From: an uncultured Acidimicrobiia bacterium
Lineage (GTDB): Bacteria > Actinomycetota > Acidimicrobiia > Spongiisociales > UBA5794
Assembly (NCBI GenBank): GCA_963792405.1
Contig: CAWBVU010000006.1
Span: forward strand, 410,325-474,324
Length of the DNA: 64,000 nt
Direction: 5' to 3'
Positions within the stretch are counted from its first letter, which is position 1. Each line of letters opens with the position of its first letter. A model generated the notes under the pieces. That model was not told the DNA's origin. It saw only the letters and a program-made list of their open reading frames with translations, and ran no database searches. The translations under genes and the position numbers were made by a program. Shown in pieces: positions 2,819 to 45,837 of the stretch.

Positions 2819-3268
2819 TCAACCCCGATTGCGGTCAAGCTCCACCACCTTGCGCAGCCTGCGGGCATGGCGTTCCTCGCCGGAGAACCTGGCGGCGATG
2901 AACGTGTCGACGATCTCGCTCGCGGTGACGACGCCGATCACCCTGGCTCCGAGCGCAAGGACGTTCATGTCGTCGTGCTCGACGGCCTGGTGGGCGGTGT
3001 ACTGGTCATGGACGACCGCACAGCGCGCACCCGTGACCTTGTTGGCGGCGATCGATGCCCCGGCTCCCGATCCGCAGACCACGATGCCGCGTTCGGCCTC
3101 GCCCCCGACCACCGCACGTGCCACCGCGGCCGCATAGTCGGGGTAGTCGACCGGCTCGGTCGAGTCCGTACCCACGTCGATGATCGTGTGCCCCGCATCC
3201 TCGAGATGTGACACGAGCATCTCTTTCAGCGGGAATCCGGCGTGGTCCGCGCCGATGACGATGCGCAC
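2819..3268 (-). CDS. rpiB: ribose-5-phosphate isomerase B
   Basis: RIVIGADHAGF...VCGSGAGASIAANK RpiB/LacAB signature; GTG start preceded by GGAGGAG RBS; co-directional with the Nudix gene. Confidence 0.85.
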   Translation of the reverse strand: MRIVIGADHAGFPLKEMLVSHLEDAGHTIIDVGTDSTEPVDYPDYAAAVARAVVGGEAERGIVVCGSGAGASIAANKVTGARCAVVHDQYTAHQAVEHDDMNVLALGARVIGVVTASEIVDTFIAARFSGEERHARRLRKVVELDRNRG

Positions 3269-3356: not shown

Positions 3357-3878
3357 ATGCGGACGATGCTGCCGAAGTCCTCCGTCGTCCTCGCGATCGC
3401 CCTGGTCGCCGTGGCGTGCTCGTCGGGTCCATCGGCGCCCCCGACGGACCCCGTGCGGGAGGTGTGCACCGAGGCGTTCTGCCTCGACGTCCCCGCAGGG
3501 TGGGATGGGGAGGTGGCCGACACGTTCATCTCGTTCCACCACGAGCTCCTTCCGGATGGGACGTTCCTCACGGCCAACGTGGTCGACATGGAGGCCATCG
3601 TGACCGCGGCGGGCGGCACGTGGCCCGTGCCGACCGACGAGGCAGTCACGGCGTTCTGGTCCCTCCTCGAGGACGTCGACGAGGGGGAACTGGCCCGGAC
3701 CGAGCGCATGGTCGGGGGCGCTGTGCGGTCCTGGGGTCGCCACAGCACGGGGGACATGTGGTATCTCCTCGCCGCGGTCGGGGGATCGAAGGGCATCGGC
3801 GTGGAGTTGCGCGCGCCCAACGACTCATGGGAGGCGCACGCCGACGTGGTGTTCTCCTCGGTCGCTCCCGTTCCCTGA
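3357..3878 (+). CDS. hypothetical lipoprotein
   Basis: MRTMLPKSSVVLAIALVAVACSSGP signal peptide with lipobox; no recognisable domain. Confidence 0.55.
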   Translation: MRTMLPKSSVVLAIALVAVACSSGPSAPPTDPVREVCTEAFCLDVPAGWDGEVADTFISFHHELLPDGTFLTANVVDMEAIVTAAGGTWPVPTDEAVTAFWSLLEDVDEGELARTERMVGGAVRSWGRHSTGDMWYLLAAVGGSKGIGVELRAPNDSWEAHADVVFSSVAPVP

Positions 3879-5218: not shown

Positions 5219-6561
5219 CACGCGGCGCGTGGCGGTCCGCCGTGCTCGCCCTCGCTGTCACCCTGACGGCGACGCTGGCGACGAGTCCTGCGCATGCGGC
5301 CACTCCGGACCAGGCTCCGGTCGTCACCGTCGAGCTCCGGGGGGACGACACGACCAGGTTCGTCGTCGACGGTCGGCGATACGCCGGCCCTGTGGTCTTC
5401 ACCCGCCTGGCCGACGGCATCACCCTCACGGAGCGGGTGTCGATCGAGCAGTACCTCGAGGGCATCGCGGAGATGCCGTTCTCATGGGAGGTGGAGGCGC
5501 TCGCGGCCCAAGCCGTCGCCGCGAGGACCTACCTGACCCGCACCCTCCTGGGCGGGCGGCGAGGCGACGCTGCGGCCCACGCCTACGACATCTGTGCGAC
5601 GAGCCGATGCCAGGTGTATCGAGGCGTGCAGTACGTCGAGGGCGAGGGCGGTGATCGTTGGCGGCGCGCCGTGAACGCCACAGAGGACGAGCTCGTCCTC
5701 TACGGGGGTCGACCGATCGAGGCGGTGTACACCTCGATGGTCGGCACGCGATCGAGGGCCAACCAGGACGTGTGGCCGTCGGATCCCGTGCCCTACCTCC
5801 AGCCCGTCGACTCACCGGAGGCGGGGAGGGCACCCTTCGCGCGGTGGGCGATCGAGGTCTCGGCTGCGCAGTTCGTCGAGATCCTGCGCGCCGACGGACT
5901 CGAGGTCGGAGGTGCACTCGTCGACATCGTCGTGGACGATCCTCCCGAGGGGGAGGGCAGGACCACGCTCACGATCATCACGGAGGGAGGGACCGACTCG
6001 ATCCTCGCCCCGGAGATGAAGGGATCGTTCAACCGACACGGTGATGTCCTGTACCCGGGAGCCCTTCCCGCCACGACCTCGGAGGGGCGACGGCTGCCCG
6101 AGCCATTGCCCTCCTACACCTACGACATCGAGAGGATCGAGATCCGCGAGCGTCCCGTCGATCGCTTCCTCGCGGCGGGCGATCGATCCGGGTCCGACGT
6201 CGTCCGCATCGTCGGTGAGGGGTGGGGCCACGGGGTGGGGATGAGCCAATGGGGAGCGCAGATCATGGCGGTCGATGGGGCGACCCACGAGGAGATCCTC
6301 ACCCACTACTACACGGGGACGACGGTCTCACCCGCCCCTGACCTCGTACCCGACACGGTCGTGGTGGGCCTCTCGACGGGTGCCACCGACGTCGTCGTCG
6401 ACGTCGAGGGAACGGCATCCCTGTTGGTCAACGGAATCCCGTTCACCTCGGTCGCCGCCGGCACGTGGGTGGTGCGCTCGGTGTCCGGCGCCCTGGCCCT
6501 CATCCCCGGTGATGGCGCACCCGCCGTCGCGCCGTTCGATACGAGGCCCTGGCCGAGGTAG
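5215..6561 (+). CDS. SpoIID/LytB domain protein (secreted)
   Basis: Signal peptide; EQYLEGIAEMPFSWEVEALAAQAVAARTYL and DICATSRCQVY SpoIID/LytB motifs; ATGA overlap with murA stop. Confidence 0.8.
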   Translation: MTRGAWRSAVLALAVTLTATLATSPAHAATPDQAPVVTVELRGDDTTRFVVDGRRYAGPVVFTRLADGITLTERVSIEQYLEGIAEMPFSWEVEALAAQAVAARTYLTRTLLGGRRGDAAAHAYDICATSRCQVYRGVQYVEGEGGDRWRRAVNATEDELVLYGGRPIEAVYTSMVGTRSRANQDVWPSDPVPYLQPVDSPEAGRAPFARWAIEVSAAQFVEILRADGLEVGGALVDIVVDDPPEGEGRTTLTIITEGGTDSILAPEMKGSFNRHGDVLYPGALPATTSEGRRLPEPLPSYTYDIERIEIRERPVDRFLAAGDRSGSDVVRIVGEGWGHGVGMSQWGAQIMAVDGATHEEILTHYYTGTTVSPAPDLVPDTVVVGLSTGATDVVVDVEGTASLLVNGIPFTSVAAGTWVVRSVSGALALIPGDGAPAVAPFDTRPWPR

Positions 6562-41628: not shown

Positions 41629-41701
41629 GGCCCCGTCGTCTAGCGGCCTAGGACGCCGCCCTCTCAAGGCGGTAGCGCCGGTTCAAATCCGGTCGGGGCT
41701 A
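41629..41701 (+). tRNA. tRNA-Glu (anticodon CTC)
   Basis: GTCTAGCGGCCTAGGAC D-arm characteristic of tRNA-Glu; anticodon arm CCGCC-CTCTCAA-GGCGG; T-arm GCCGG-TTCAAAT-CCGGT; acceptor GGCCCCG/CGGGGCT. Confidence 0.85.
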
Positions 41702-41947
41702 CGAAGAGACCTCTCGCATCTCACGCGGGGGGTTTCTTTGCGTTACCCCCTTGAGAGTGCGGCGTGCCGCTTCTGCTCTCCCTTTGGCAAGGCGGTAGCG
41801 CCGGTTCACATCCGGTCGGGGCTACGAAGAGACCTCTCGCATCTCACGCGGGGGGTTTCTTTGCGTTACCCCCTTGAGAGTGCGGCGTGCCGCTTCTGCT
41901 CTCCCTTTGGCAAGGCGGTAGCGCCGGTTCACATCCGGTCGGGGCTA
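41702..41947 (+). repeat. two tandem 123-nt direct repeats, each ending in a copy of the tRNA-Glu 3' half (anticodon-loop to 3' end, T-loop TTCACAT instead of TTCAAAT)
   Basis: Near-identical units at about 41702-41824 and 41825-41947; each carries CAAGGCGGTAGCGCCGGTTCACATCCGGTCGGGGCT but no 5' acceptor/D-arm, so they are not complete tRNAs. Confidence 0.8.
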
Positions 41948-41952
41948 CAAGC

Positions 41953-41981: not shown

Positions 41982-42217
41982 CGCGTTCCGAGCCCGATGC
42001 GTGACGGGGGTGGCGCGGGCGGACGATGCCGATTTCGGCGGTTTGGTGGTGGGATGGTGCGAAACGGGACGTCGCGCCCGTATCATCGGCTCAGCTGCTT
42101 CGGCGGCCTTCCCCTTGCTCGTTGTCCTACGACTCTGATTCTCGGGTCGGTTCCGGACATCTCATCAGGTGCGGCACACCGTGTGCGCGCACATCCCTGA
42201 CAGCAAAGGAAGCTGCC

Positions 42218-42463
42218 ATGAACATCTTCGTCGGCAATTTGCCATTTACCGCCTCCGAGTCGGATCTCCGAGGCCTGTTCGCCGAATACGGCGATATCGA
42301 ATCCGTCGCGATCATCTCCGACCGCGACACCGGACGCTCACGTGGGTTCGGCTTCGTCGAGCTCGCCGCTGATGCCCGCGCCAATGACGCGATCCGCGAC
42401 CTGGACGGCACCAGCCTCGATGGTCGCAACATCAACGTCAACCAGGCCAAGCCACGTTCGTGA
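42218..42463 (+). CDS. RRM-domain (RNP-1) RNA-binding protein
   Basis: RNP-2 IFVGNL and RNP-1 RGFGFVE motifs; 81 aa; AAGGAAG RBS; long (over 200 nt) upstream untranslated region. Confidence 0.8.
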   Translation: MNIFVGNLPFTASESDLRGLFAEYGDIESVAIISDRDTGRSRGFGFVELAADARANDAIRDLDGTSLDGRNINVNQAKPRS

Positions 42464-42639
42464 CGACCGACCAAGGCCGGGACGACGCCCCGTCGTCGGA
42501 GCTGTCCACCTGCACTCGCTGTGGGATGGAGCTTCGGACGACAGAGCTGTGGGCCCACACGGCCCACGCTCACAACATCGACCTCGACGCCAAGAAGCCG
42601 AAGAGCAAGGGCAAGGGACGCGATCGGGGAGGACGTTGA
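42460..42639 (+). CDS. small C2H2-like zinc-finger protein with Lys/Arg-rich tail (59 aa)
   Basis: GTG start overlapping the rbp stop (GTGA); C-x2-C-x11-H-x2-H-x-H pattern then KKPKSKGKGRDRGGR; coding status inferred from coupling and codon usage. Confidence 0.45.
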   Translation: MTTDQGRDDAPSSELSTCTRCGMELRTTELWAHTAHAHNIDLDAKKPKSKGKGRDRGGR

Positions 42640-42827
42640 TGCTCAATGGCCTCCTCCAGCACACGCCCTGCATCATCACGACGATCGACGGTGACTCGGT
42701 CACCGGCGTCTACGGCGGGATCGAGACACGACATGGTGACTGGGCGGTGCTCGTCCGTAGGGAGACCGACACGCTCAGCATCCCCGTCGAATCCATCAGG
42801 GCGGCGTCCCGAGCCACCCGCGCCTAG
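42639..42827 (+). CDS. small hypothetical protein (62 aa)
   Basis: ATG overlaps the preceding stop (ATGA); no recognisable domain. Confidence 0.4.
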   Translation: MLNGLLQHTPCIITTIDGDSVTGVYGGIETRHGDWAVLVRRETDTLSIPVESIRAASRATRA

Positions 42828-42870
42828 TCACCGACGTCGGAGCTGCGGTGCGGGAGGCGTCTCGCTTCCT

Positions 42871-42889
42871 TCTCCCCCTTTGGGGGAGA
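42871..42889 (+). terminator. hairpin TCTCCCCC-TTT-GGGGGAGA downstream of the three-gene mini-operon
   Basis: 8-bp GC-rich stem, 3-nt loop, 44 nt after the stop at 42827. Confidence 0.5.
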
Positions 42890-42960
42890 TGCCCGGTAGG
42901 GCAGAGGGGGGAGTGCGGTGCGGGAGGCGTCTCGTCGCGGTGCGCGCTGTCAGTACTGCG

Positions 42961-43065
42961 GCCCTCTCTGCGTCGCTTCGCTCCGCGTCTCTCCCGCGGG
43001 GAGAGACGGAGCAGGGTGCCCTCTCTGCGTCGCTGCGCTCCGCGTCTCTCCCGCGGGGAGAGACG
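42961..43065 (+). repeat. two tandem about 57-nt units each containing a 10-bp hairpin CGTCTCTCCC-GCG-GGGAGAGACG
   Basis: Units GCCCTCTCTGCGTCGCT(T/G)CGCTCCGCGTCTCTCCCGCGGGGAGAGACG at about 42961-43008 and 43018-43065; an additional 22-nt direct repeat GTGCGGTGCGGGAGGCGTCTCG at about 42843 and 42913. Confidence 0.6.
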
Positions 43066-43275
43066 ACGAACGGCGGTCGCTCCTCGCGTCCGTTCGATCC
43101 TCGGTCGTGGCGAACGATCTTCATCTGCGCCCCACAGCGGCGTGTCGCCCGCGTAGCCTCGGGTTGACGGCCCTGTGTCGGCCGCTGTCCACACACAGGC
43201 CCGGGCATGCTCGGTGCCTCCGTGCGGACACGGGTCGGCGGGGCACGCGAAGAAACGGGAGAGGAAAGGGGAACC

Positions 43276-45837
43276 ATGTCCCTCCAGCGAATCCATCGAA
43301 CGCGGCGCGTTCGAGTCGTCCTCACGGTCGTGGCGGTGCTCGCCGCACTGCTCGTCCTGGCTGCGCCGTCGGCGCAGGCAGAGCCGCCGGACGGCTATGA
43401 CACCGCCACGTTCACCCTGACCATCCTGCACAACAACGACGGCGAGTCGCAGCTCGTGAATGCAGGTAGCGGCATCGAGACGTACGGGGGCGCCGCGCGG
43501 TTCGATGCGCTCGTCGACGCCCGCCGGACGGCCCAGGCGGGCCTCACCGACGGGGTGCTGATGGTGTCGTCCGGTGACAACTTCCTCGCGGGACCGGAGT
43601 TCAATCTGGGCCTCGAGAATTTCCTCGCGACGGGAGAGCCGTTCTACGACACCGTGGCCATGGCGCTGATCGGCTACGACGCCGTCGCACTCGGCAACCA
43701 CGACTTCGACTTCGGTCCCGAGGTCCTCGCGGACTTCCTCACCGGGTACCAGACGCCGCCGACGGGCTACGTGGGACCCTATGTCACGCCGCCCTACGTC
43801 TCGGCGAACCTGGACTTCGTGGGTGAGCCGACGCTCAACGCGCTCGTCGATCCCCTCGGACCGATCACGACGGCGGTCGACCCGCTGAGGCCGATCGCCA
43901 AGAGCACGATCGTGAGCTCGGGAGGCGTCGATATCGGGTTCATCGGCCTCGAGACCCCGAACCTCGCCTCCATCTCGAGCCCGAGGAACGTGGCGATCGA
44001 CAGGGCGATCGTGAGCGTCGTCCAGGCGCAGGTGACCGCACTCGACGGCCTCGGCGTCGACCACATCGTGCTGTTGAGCCACCTCCAGGACATCGACAAC
44101 GAGAAGAGCCTGATCGCCCAGGTCACGGGCCTCGACGTGGTCGTCGCAGGTGGCGGTGACGAGCTGCTCGCCAATGCCGGCGACACGCTCATCCCCGGCG
44201 ACACCGCGGTGGACACGTATCCCGTGTGGCAGCAGGACGCAGCAGACGTCTACGTCCCGATCGTCACCACGTCCGGTGAGTACAAGTACCTCGGACAGCT
44301 CGAGGTTGGCTTCGACGCCGCCGGTGCGGTCGTGGGGGTCGGGCCGAACAGCGGCCCGCTCGTCGTGTCGACCGCTGCGGGCAACGACGCCGACATGCAG
44401 ACGTGGGTCGTCGATCCCGTCGTCGCAGGACTGGACGTCCTCGCCTCCACCAAGGTGGCGACGAGCCAGGTCGACCTCGACGGCCGTCGCGACTCGGTGC
44501 GCTTCATGGAGACGAATGAGGGCAACCTGATCGCCGACAGCCAGCTCTGGCAGGCGAAGAAGATCGCTGCCGACTTCGGCGCGAAGGCGCCGGACGTCGC
44601 CCTCCAGAACGGCGGCGGCATCAGGAACAACACCATCATCTCGGCCGGTGACCTCACCGTGCTCGACACGTTCGACATGGTGCCGTTCCCGAACTTCGTC
44701 ACAGTCGTCGAGGACGTGCCGATCGCCCAGTTCAAGGAGATCCTCGAGAACGCGGTCTCGGCCGTGGATGGGCTCTCCGGCGGCACCGGGCGGTTCGCAC
44801 AGGTCGCGGGCTTCTCCATGACCTACAACCCGTCGGCGCAGGCGCAGGTCGTCAATGACGCGGGGTTCGTGCTGAAGCCCGGCATGCGCATCCAGGACGT
44901 CAAGCTCGACGACGGTACGGTGCTCGTCAAGGACGGCGCGCTCATGCCGGCCACGAAGCCGAGCGTGAGCATCGCGATCGTCGACTTCCTCGCTCGCGGC
45001 GGTGATCAGTATCCGTTCAGGAACGCACCCTTCAAGGTGCTCGGTGTTTCGTACCAGCAGGCACTCCAGAACTACCTGGAGATGCTCGGCACGGTGACCG
45101 CGGCGGACTACCCGGAGGGTGGCGAGGGCAGGATCACCCTGTCCGGTGCCCAGGTCGGGCTCGTTGACACGAGCACCGGCGTGTGGACGCTCGGCGGTGA
45201 CGCCTTCTACTACGGCAACCCCGGCGATGTGCCGTTCGTGGGTGACTGGGACTGCAATGGCACGTCGACACCGGGCCTGTACCGGCAATCGGACGGATTC
45301 GCCTACCTGAGGAACTCGAACACACAGGGCACAGCGGACCTGACGTTCTTCTTCGGGAACCCGGGCGACGTGCCGATCGCCGGCGACTTCGACGGTGACG
45401 GATGTGACACGCTGTCGATCTATCGCCCGTCGAACCAGACGTTCTACATCATCAACGAGCTCGGAAAGGACGGTGGGGGCCTCGGCGCCGCCGACTTCAG
45501 CTTCGTGTTCGGTGATCCGGGAGATGAGCCCTTCGTCGGCGATCTCGACGGTGACGGGATCGACGAGGTCGCCCTTCACCGTGACACGACCGGTCTGGTC
45601 TACTACCGGACCACGCTGACGACCGGGGCGGCGAACGTCTCGTTCATCTGGGGCGACCCCGCGGACACGGTGTTCGCAGGTGACTGGAACGGCGACGGCA
45701 CCGACACGGTCGGATTGTTGCGGGCATCGAACTCCACGTTCTACTACCGCAACACCAACACCCAGGGCGTGGCGGACGGCAGCAGCGTGCTCACCGGGGG
45801 CGCCACCGGCGTTCCGGTGGTGGGGCGGTTCGGCTGA
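43276..45837 (+). CDS. secreted bifunctional 5'-nucleotidase / 2',3'-cyclic-nucleotide phosphodiesterase (UshA-like) with C-terminal FG-GAP/VCBS-like repeats
   Basis: Signal peptide; metallophosphoesterase motifs ILHNNDGES, GNHDFDFG; 5'-nucleotidase C-terminal domain; about 250-aa C-terminal region with 5 repeats of FxxGNPGDxPxxGDWDGDGxDTxGLYR. Confidence 0.85.
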   Translation: MSLQRIHRTRRVRVVLTVVAVLAALLVLAAPSAQAEPPDGYDTATFTLTILHNNDGESQLVNAGSGIETYGGAARFDALVDARRTAQAGLTDGVLMVSSGDNFLAGPEFNLGLENFLATGEPFYDTVAMALIGYDAVALGNHDFDFGPEVLADFLTGYQTPPTGYVGPYVTPPYVSANLDFVGEPTLNALVDPLGPITTAVDPLRPIAKSTIVSSGGVDIGFIGLETPNLASISSPRNVAIDRAIVSVVQAQVTALDGLGVDHIVLLSHLQDIDNEKSLIAQVTGLDVVVAGGGDELLANAGDTLIPGDTAVDTYPVWQQDAADVYVPIVTTSGEYKYLGQLEVGFDAAGAVVGVGPNSGPLVVSTAAGNDADMQTWVVDPVVAGLDVLASTKVATSQVDLDGRRDSVRFMETNEGNLIADSQLWQAKKIAADFGAKAPDVALQNGGGIRNNTIISAGDLTVLDTFDMVPFPNFVTVVEDVPIAQFKEILENAVSAVDGLSGGTGRFAQVAGFSMTYNPSAQAQVVNDAGFVLKPGMRIQDVKLDDGTVLVKDGALMPATKPSVSIAIVDFLARGGDQYPFRNAPFKVLGVSYQQALQNYLEMLGTVTAADYPEGGEGRITLSGAQVGLVDTSTGVWTLGGDAFYYGNPGDVPFVGDWDCNGTSTPGLYRQSDGFAYLRNSNTQGTADLTFFFGNPGDVPIAGDFDGDGCDTLSIYRPSNQTFYIINELGKDGGGLGAADFSFVFGDPGDEPFVGDLDGDGIDEVALHRDTTGLVYYRTTLTTGAANVSFIWGDPADTVFAGDWNGDGTDTVGLLRASNSTFYYRNTNTQGVADGSSVLTGGATGVPVVGRFG

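Follow-up and report, generated by a model that had tools for sequence, protein, structure and literature searches.

A conserved operon of Acidimicrobiia that joins a single-RRM protein to a zinc-finger-like mini-protein and a predicted Sm-like barrel: comparison with described RNA-binding systems

Bacterial proteins containing an RNA-recognition motif (RRM) have only lately been recognised as RNA chaperones of the cold-shock type, and we know of no partner protein for any of them. In cyanobacteria the rbpA1 gene reportedly adjoins rpsU and is co-transcribed with it, an observation said to go back to Sato et al. 1997. The single-RRM Rbp proteins, represented by the cyanobacterial RbpA type and by RbpA, RbpB and RbpC of Bacteroides, are about 80 aa long and consist of one RRM with canonical RNP1 and RNP2 motifs. 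The Bacteroides rbp genes, which encode cold-shock proteins, have 5′ untranslated regions (UTRs) of 122-155 nt and are subject to a negative auto-regulation that is post-transcriptional and exerted in part via the UTR (PMC13370968). A gene resembling them in size, domain content and motifs opens a small operon in the window analysed here, namely a 64,000-nt stretch of contig CAWBVU010000006.1 from an uncultured Acidimicrobiia bacterium, to which all positions refer unless another sequence is named. Open reading frame 1 (ORF1; 42218-42463, plus strand, ATG start, 81 aa) encodes the single-domain RRM protein, ORF2 (42460-42639, plus strand, GTG start, 59 aa) a mini-protein resembling a Cys2-His2(-His) zinc finger with a Lys/Arg/Gly tail, and ORF3 (42639-42827, plus strand, ATG start, 62 aa) a predicted small beta-barrel protein of the Sm-like/SH3-like kind. 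It is judged moderately probable that the three genes are one transcription unit making the parts of a small RNA-handling complex, in which a chaperone or regulator centred on the RRM protein would be assisted by two dedicated partners. The earlier note on this DNA, drawn from its letters alone, had thought of an undescribed RNA-chaperone or regulatory module; with the conservation of ORF2 and ORF3 this reading holds, the function itself being a putative one.

By its profile matches ORF1 is a bona fide member of the single-RRM Rbp proteins, a known kind. It scores 79 bits (E 2e-22) against Pfam RRM_1, for which the cutoff is 20.7, and 111.2 bits against NCBIfam NF058537 ('Rbp_regulator', RNA-binding regulator), for which it is 100, bearing out the assignment made before from the RNP-1 and RNP-2 signatures. 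RNP2 reads IFVGNL and RNP1 RGFGFVEL; the protein is the RRM domain alone, devoid of a Gly-rich tail, and acidic (isoelectric point, pI, 4.6), and the ratio of nonsynonymous to synonymous substitution rates (dN/dS) between operon copies is about 0.05. The lower GC content ascribed to the gene is real, if small (GC 0.61; GC at third codon positions, GC3, 0.77, versus 0.85-0.91 in the neighbouring genes), and of the codons named as its mark AAT occurs twice and TTG once; the supposed use of ATA did not stand, there being no such codon. Rarity of RRM genes in Actinobacteria, also proposed, fails for this lineage, as one Acidimicrobiia contig, L006, has five RRM-domain genes within 8 kb. The stretch concerned (L006 1-8219, on a 3.48-Mb contig) contains a cold-shock-domain gene as well and looks like an RNA-chaperone gene island.

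Further copies of the operon were found by retrieving the DNA around relatives; a scan of genome contigs returned only one locus. They are carried by a metagenome fragment (L001), the Acidimicrobiia metagenome-assembled genome (MAG) SZUA-258 (L002), a TARA ocean contig (L003) and Logan contigs (L037-L042). The trio is present in the same order and with the same overlaps in L002, L003 and L037, and in part in L001. At the first junction of the window the GTG start of ORF2 lies within GTGA, overlapping the stop codon of ORF1, an arrangement found in all complete copies; at the second, ORF2 and ORF3 share one base in TGATG (stop 42637-42639, ATG 42639-42641), which is TGATG or TAATG in the complete copies. 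Hence, of the GTGA and ATGA overlaps reported initially, the former is correct and the latter is really TGATG, and the translational coupling of the three genes proposed with them is borne out by the retention of the stop/start overlaps across the other copies. GGGGAGGA is located 6-13 nt 5′ of the ATG of ORF3. The gene-neighbourhood comparison that had been suggested as a check was carried out, and ORF2 and ORF3 were found 3′ of the RRM gene in every orthologous locus recovered as well as in a paralogous cluster.

The same copies bear on the possibility that only the RRM gene is functional, ORF2 and/or ORF3 being chance frames in a GC-rich 3′ UTR, or ORF2 a mere spacer. Spurious ORFs are common in GC-rich DNA, ORF2 is unannotated in every database searched and is skipped by gene callers (which leave a gap at its place in L003 and L037-L042), and its full-length dN/dS of 0.15-0.8, with values of 0.4-0.8 between close relatives, would be compatible with that explanation. 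However, the length of ORF2 in four genomes (180, 183, 174 and 168 nt) varies by whole codons only, so that the frame is kept across the indels, and none of its Cys and His ligands varies among six homologues, two of which are distant paralogues. In the 30-codon core of ORF2 the ratio of the proportions of nonsynonymous and synonymous differences (pN/pS) is 0.24-0.43, and in the block ELWAHTAHAHN(V/I)DLD the protein is invariant and the DNA changes are synonymous. For ORF3, dN/dS is 0.19-0.37; its fold is predicted confidently, and its family comprises at least 174 clusters. Purifying selection, the kept frame and the conserved overlaps thus argue that ORF2 and ORF3 are both coding, and on this comparison they are real genes under purifying selection; the chance-frame explanation appears largely refuted by the comparative data and is highly improbable.

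ORF3 had been thought to have no recognisable fold, which is wrong: it is modelled as a small beta-barrel of the Sm-like kind, and its family is undescribed. The AlphaFold2 model, obtained with a 120-sequence alignment, is confident (predicted local distance difference test score, pLDDT, 90.4) and shows five strands and no helix, arranged as the bent five-stranded beta-barrel that defines the Sm fold. In fold comparison it scored 8.9 with Rof/YaeO (all 62 residues aligned), 7.9 with Gemin6, 7.8 with the C-terminal domain of BirA, 7.3-7.7 with Lsm and Hfq chains, 7.4 with RimP and 7.0 with Mfd. A search of the protein database returned ORF3 itself (P0001, on a 2.09-Mb contig) and one metagenome protein of 71% identity, a HMMER scan of 1.84 billion representatives 28 relatives, and a profile search of the 5.8-billion-cluster database 174 clusters. 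The members, of 60-85 aa, are all labelled 'hypothetical', and their sources, where named (few are), are Acidimicrobiia or Actinomycetota MAGs. They share the motif LNxLxxGxxYxxTTxxGxxxGxYLGxExxHGDxxILLRxxxxTxSI and their median pI is 9.3, that of ORF3 being 6.0, i.e. slightly acidic. None carries a Pfam domain; matches to SM-ATX (E 0.03) or DUF4444 (E 3e-4) were confined to 3 of 29 members, and no LSM or Hfq match was obtained for the family. Comparison with E. coli Hfq by hhalign aligned 11 columns with a probability of 0.9%, which is not significant, and the YKH pocket of Hfq is absent, the equivalent position reading T-x-S-I-P. With E. coli Rof, the query sequence being an approximate one, the hhalign probability was 0.3%, and the Pfam Rof family gave no match to ORF3 at E<=1. 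As these profile comparisons were not significant, membership of ORF3 in the Hfq or Rof families was rejected. The N-terminus of the family, LNxLRRG (columns 28-38 of alignment A5), resembles FLNALRRE of Hfq (E. coli residues 9-19), and its ILLR resembles the Hfq ILLK; the likeness, not statistically significant, could hint at a trace of very remote Hfq ancestry. A longer version of ORF3 starting at 42342 (161 aa) was also considered and rejected, in that the extension is not conserved and is interrupted by stop codons in L002 and L003, and the N-terminus of the family is MLNxL.

The genes encoding such barrels are found next to RRM domains in different architectures. In the clade of the window the barrel gene follows a small RRM gene and ORF2. 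In L004, L005 and L006 it lies directly 3′ of a gene for a DEAD-box helicase of about 500 aa that ends in a Pfam RRM_1 domain. By screening 30 metagenome loci with ORF3-family members with phmmer against six-frame translations, a helicase-RRM gene was found to end 100-160 nt 5′ of the barrel gene in 25 of the 27 loci that extended far enough upstream, the exceptions being L011 and L033; the 30 loci had been retrieved with a single peptide pattern, so one subfamily is over-represented among them and several contigs are near-duplicates. In a third architecture, seen in one lineage, the two modules are fused: P0007 (L043 592-1077), of 161 aa, has an ORF3-like barrel at its N-terminus and an RRM at its C-terminus. 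Four contigs from three samples encode this protein, and its gene comes after a separate RRM gene of 84 aa. P0005 and P0009 resemble truncated versions of it. L006 also contains a second, divergent cluster made of an RRM gene, an ORF2-like gene (E 7e-9), an ORF3-like gene and a further RRM gene that is frameshifted in the assembly. The linkage of the ORF3 family to RRM genes is strong, though it has exceptions, and the RRM domain, not the helicase, is the common denominator of the barrel architectures. ORF2-like genes also follow small RRM genes with no barrel gene present, at L006 7051-7215 (directly before the cold-shock-domain gene) and in L025, and the link of the ORF2 family to RRM genes is therefore independent of the barrel.

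This genomic company is the most informative finding on the family. In a different proposal, ORF3 is a Rof-like anti-terminator, which would bind and inhibit Rho and be co-expressed under stress with the RRM protein, with no physical tie to it. The site on Rho that Rof obstructs is Rho's RNA-binding site. Rof, an Sm-like protein, is described in PMC11018626 as a Rho inhibitor that works by obstruction of a binding site. The proposal finds no counterpart in the Pfam and hhalign results given above, and it leaves unexplained the position of the barrel after RRM-ending genes and its fusion to an RRM; it is very unlikely. As a mechanistic analogy for a barrel that might regulate an RNA-binding domain, Rof is nevertheless useful: in a Rof-like manner, ORF3 could have as its target a partner protein's RNA-binding domain and not RNA itself.

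ORF2 has the ligand spacing C18-x2-C21-x11-H33-x2-H36-x-H38, followed by the basic tail KKPKSKGKGRDRGGR. The corresponding spacing of a classical C2H2 finger is C-x2-4-C-x12-H-x3-5-H. The protein is conserved in L001, L002, L003 and L037, and paralogues are located behind further RRM genes, two in L006 and one in L025. In the alignment of six homologues, i.e. the four orthologues and the paralogues of L006 (that next to the cold-shock-domain gene) and L025, C18, R20, C21, M23, E29, H33, A35, H36, A37, H38 and N39 are invariant. The description of a Cys2-His2 finger-like mini-protein with a basic tail holds. A single-sequence AlphaFold2 prediction yielded a beta-hairpin followed by a helix, the beta-beta-alpha order of C2H2 fingers, at modest confidence (pLDDT 68 overall and 84 for residues 21-30). 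A word-indexed search of 5.8 billion protein clusters gave no match for ORF2, not even itself; exact-sequence look-ups of ORF2, ORF3 and P0001 and a metagenome scan with ORF2 patterns returned nothing; and neither ORF2 nor ORF3 belongs to a family of Pfam, NCBIfam, PADLOC or PHROGs. The ORF2 of the window has no Pfam family at E<=1, and hence no C2H2 hidden Markov model (HMM) match, and the six homologues gave only zf-Di19 (0.068) and zf_UBZ (0.072), for one member each. ORF2 is thus a concrete case of a conserved small gene that is missing from protein databases.

The profile built from the six homologues was run against the sequences of all PDB chains (177,635). Its top three matches, labelled 'C2H2-type domain-containing protein', were small C2H2 proteins modelled in archaeal (Thermococcales) 70S ribosomes: 9QF4_Bk (64 aa, E 7.8e-4), 9SRA_Bk of P. 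abyssi (65 aa, E 1.1e-3) and 6SKG_Bo of T. kodakarensis (47 aa, E 0.03). The 9SRA entry belongs to the P. abyssi 70S-HibA structures (PMC13324472) and 6SKG is a T. kodakarensis ribosome (PMC8024482). The match spans R-C-P-R-C-G-M, the His pair and the KPKGK-type tail. With the single ORF2 sequence the same ranking was obtained with an E-value of 0.78, which is not significant. The archaeal proteins share with ORF2 their size range (47-65 aa), the R-C-P/T-R-C-G/S-M segment, a His pair on the following helix and a Lys/Gly-rich tail; they differ from it in being archaeal, with a similarity that is borderline, and in that ORF2 has, in addition, a third His and an Asn that are both invariant (HxAHAHN). 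Identity of ORF2 with aS21 was considered and rejected, and the archaeal chains matched are likewise distinct from aS21, because the latter carries two zinc knuckles (PMC7005279). As a lead, ORF2 is possibly a C2H2-like RNA- or rRNA-binding mini-protein, perhaps associated with the ribosome.

A stronger version of this proposal, which overlaps with the RNA-handling complex and is not exclusive of it, would make ORF2 a ribosome-associated mini-protein produced together with a cold-type Rbp in order to adapt the ribosome, as a bacterial counterpart of the Thermococcales C2H2 protein and in likeness to the pairing of cyanobacterial rbpA1 with rpsU (S21). The module would then act on the ribosome and not as a free chaperone of RNA. 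That the chains of the P. abyssi and T. kodakarensis 70S models come first for both the profile and the single sequence fits with it, as does the position of the operon close to rpsF-ssb-rpsR-rplI in L003; PMC6337551 cites a cold-induced rpsU in cyanobacteria. Yet the E-values are borderline with the profile and not significant with the single sequence, the low-confidence ORF2 model gave no significant match in fold searches, the literature found does not describe what the archaeal C2H2 protein does or where it sits, and a ribosomal-gene neighbourhood occurs in one context only. By taking these points together, the proposal is considered possible but rather unlikely.

The operon is preceded by a structured leader of about 125 nt (42092-42217, plus strand), which starts CAGCUGCUUCGGCGG and runs to the start codon of the RRM gene. 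In the alignment of the window with L002, homology begins abruptly at CAGCTGCTTCGGCGG (window 42092) and continues for 125 nt to the ATG; among the window, L002, L003 and L037 the identity of the leader equals or exceeds that of the coding sequence, and the same leader is present 5′ of two RRM paralogues in L006 and of one in L025. A candidate −10 box, TATCAT (pattern TANNNT; 42081-42086, plus strand), lies 6-8 nt 5′ of the conserved sequence, and TANNNT is found at the same place in 7/7 aligned leaders (TATCAT, TACGCT, TACCGT in three of them, TATCGT and TAGTCT). As the conservation edge at 42092-42093 follows the TANNNT box by about 7 nt, the 5′ UTR is estimated at about 125 nt, and the length of more than 200 nt assumed in the earlier note is not borne out. 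A consensus sigma-70 scan found nothing. A −35-like GCG(G/A)AA(T/C) element (window 42056-42066) is located 14-15 nt 5′ of TANNNT and is kept in L002, L003 and L037, though not in the L006/L025 clade. The element recalls promoters of the GGAAT/GGAAC type recognised by alternative sigma factors.

The minimum free energy (MFE) of the leader is −50.9 kcal/mol (z = −2.4). A long-range helix is predicted between a 5′ arm, GGCGGC-CUUCC-UUGCU (42102-42119, plus strand), which would serve as anti-Shine-Dalgarno segment, and a 3′ arm, AGCAA-A-GGAAGCUGCC (42202-42217, plus strand), which lies directly 5′ of the ATG and includes the Shine-Dalgarno sequence AAGGAAG (42206-42212). RNAalifold and the single-sequence folds agree on this helix, which is present in the MFE structure of 5/6 leaders. 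Counting pairs, 91.7% of the cells are paired, versus 39-53% with the partners slid, and changes on both sides affect six pairs versus 0-3 after sliding; the two arms have changed in concert in the L006/L025 clade. That the leader helix can sequester the Shine-Dalgarno sequence of the RRM gene has been shown computationally. A possible alternative hairpin of the invariant 5′ end, cUGC-UUCG-GCGG (42095-42106), overlaps the 5′ arm; it would free the Shine-Dalgarno arm, which suggests a putative switch. Rfam 15 has no match at E<=1 within 42092-42217, and a covariance model of the leader recovered nothing beyond the sequences it was trained on, with no copy before helicase genes or elsewhere in the window. 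The leader is thus a new candidate cis-regulatory RNA motif. A second conserved type of leader, beginning ..TCCGTCCGGCGGAG, precedes another group of small-RRM paralogues near the helicase-barrel pair (L009 ~3610-3740, L013 ~5385-5515, L024 ~2690-2820 and L029 ~2983-3110, all on the minus strand); in most folds its GGACAUG pairs with the CAUGUCC start-codon region.

From these elements a working scheme of the putative RNA-handling complex can be drawn. Transcription would start near 42092, as indicated by the TANNNT box and the sharp conservation edge. The 5′ arm of the leader would then pair with the Shine-Dalgarno sequence of the RRM gene, and translation of the first cistron should therefore need opening of the helix, which might be triggered by temperature and/or by feedback of the Rbp protein, by analogy with what is reported for csp and rbp genes elsewhere. 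With the starts of ORF2 and ORF3 located within or at the preceding stop, their translation would be coupled to that of the RRM gene, and the three products would be made in roughly fixed proportion, a stoichiometry deduced from the observed overlaps. The RRM protein would bind single-stranded RNA; the zinc-finger mini-protein would add affinity for RNA or rRNA through its beta-beta-alpha finger and Lys/Arg/Gly tail, and may dock the complex on the ribosome; and the Sm-like barrel would be a dedicated partner of the RRM domain that extends or modulates the RNA-binding surface. As a whole, the module would be an RNA chaperone or post-transcriptional regulator of the cold-shock/RNA-remodelling class. 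To our knowledge, Actinobacteria lack Hfq. It is conceivable, if quite unlikely, that RRM protein, C2H2 finger and Sm-like barrel form a mini-ribonucleoprotein that is the missing general RNA-chaperone system of Acidimicrobiia, in which the barrels, as a new class of dedicated RRM-domain partner, would serve the DEAD-box-RRM helicases too and the finger would be the link to the ribosome.

Several observations weigh against the scheme. The count of RRM neighbours is biased to one subfamily and includes near-duplicates, and three ORF3-family members have no RRM-bearing neighbour (L011 2998-3123, L033 1848-1946 and L044 5001-5219). In L044 the gene 5′ of the barrel gene encodes a 747-aa AAA_31 protein. 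The similarity of ORF2 to the archaeal chains is borderline (E 8e-4 by profile, 0.78 by single sequence). ORF3 has neither Sm1/Sm2 nor Hfq sequence motifs, and no N-terminal helix is predicted for it; furthermore, because ORF3 and the RRM protein are both acidic, a simple role in providing more RNA affinity is not obvious. The covariation in the leader comes from 6-7 sequences that fall essentially into two clades, and it was from these same sequences that the structure had been derived. Finally, a helix that sequesters the Shine-Dalgarno sequence is more stable in the cold, so that cold induction would not be explained by the helix alone.

It had been suggested that the operon could be a small mobile cargo. 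A tandem array (41665-41948) in which a 123-nt unit is repeated 2.3 times follows directly after an intact tRNA-Glu(CTC); the unit consists of the last 38 nt of the tRNA and the 85 nt downstream of it, and its copies are 97-100% identical. The array may have arisen by slippage or duplication, or may be the scars of an integrating element; no recombinase is encoded nearby. On one reading, an integrative or mobile element has inserted at tRNA-Glu and the operon is its cargo, or else the operon is a toxin-antitoxin or defence cassette, an idea to which its position directly after the tRNA and an array repeating the 3′ half of the latter, the GC3 of ORF1, slightly below that of neighbouring genes, and the varying genomic contexts would lend themselves. 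The genes flanking the operon do differ from genome to genome; the four contexts are nonetheless made of housekeeping genes, and in the window the neighbours are gltX, a glyoxalase-family gene, tRNA-Gln and tRNA-Glu on the 5′ side and a 5′-nucleotidase gene on the 3′ side, with no integrase among them. The operon matched neither plasmids nor phages, and no family of PADLOC or PHROGs. In the other copies there is no tRNA-Glu array and no tRNA nearby, from which the array is taken to be a coincidental neighbour, and its repeats are tandem, with a period of 123 nt, rather than flanking an island. Thus the array noted at the outset is real and its link to the operon is not, horizontal transfer or mobile cargo was rejected and finds no support, and the cargo or cassette reading is extremely improbable.

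In all other copies of the operon, ORF3 is followed by a fourth cistron that is absent from the window (L003 4208-4396; L002 8205-8393; L001 292-501; L037 3568-3786). It encodes a highly charged, helical protein of 62-72 aa with the motif DDxDAYERERxEANxRYEEQRKADHEAAE and no Pfam family, with a dN/dS of 0.07-0.22. In the window, the position of this fourth gene of the related genomes is filled by repeats (42844-43074) in the repeat-rich non-coding DNA 3′ of ORF3, namely a 21-nt direct repeat (42844-42864 and 42914-42934) and a 57-nt tandem repeat (42961-43017 and 43018-43074) with the palindrome TCTCTCCCGCGGGGAGAGA in each copy; neither has another occurrence in the window. A candidate terminator hairpin, GCGGGAGGCGTCTCGC followed by TTCCTTCTCC (42850-42865, plus strand), came from a consensus scan only and is weak, with a poor T-run. 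Beyond the repeats, the next gene encodes the protein of 876 aa with a 5′-nucleotidase domain. An Rfam match to the ylbH leader (43191-43290), spanning the sequence just 5′ of this gene and its start, scored 23 bits versus a gathering score of 50 (E 0.029) and is probably due to chance.

Neither RRM genes in Acidimicrobiia nor the present module turned up in literature searches, and the two partner families, their linkage to RRM genes and the leader are undescribed in the libraries and literature searched. Acidimicrobiia are abundant, mostly uncultured actinobacteria of marine and soil environments, and, if the complex forms, it would offer a route to post-transcriptional control in them. The candidate RRM partners are the zinc-finger mini-protein and the barrel family, the latter of which tracks the RRM in three architectures (with a small Rbp gene, with a helicase-RRM gene and as a fusion).

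A comparison of the operon with known systems brings out both likeness and difference at each level. With respect to the described single-RRM Rbp proteins, the leader of ORF1 (about 125 nt) is of a length with the Bacteroides rbp 5′ UTRs; unlike them, the Rbp of the window has an Acidimicrobiia host and a leader that is not in Rfam, and none of the described rbp genes is followed by translationally coupled genes for a zinc-finger protein and an Sm-like barrel as is the case here. Leaders of the cspA type and RNA thermometers are similarly long and structured, with an upstream segment that pairs with the Shine-Dalgarno region of a gene for a stress protein or RNA chaperone, whereas the present leader has no sequence or Rfam relationship to them. 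ORF3 differs from Sm, Lsm, Hfq and Rof proteins in the lack of a significant HMM or profile match and in being associated in the genome with an RRM domain instead of Rho. In eukaryotes, small nuclear ribonucleoprotein (snRNP) sets comprise an Sm/Lsm ring, RRM proteins and the C2H2 protein U1C, and Prp24 works with Lsm2-8. As in these sets, an RRM, a C2H2-type finger and an Sm-like barrel might act jointly on RNA, in a compositional analogy that concerns the kinds of domains only and implies neither a ring nor homology of assembly nor a dedicated RNA partner. If its products do assemble, they would provide a bacterial case of RRM, zinc-finger and Sm-like modules working together.

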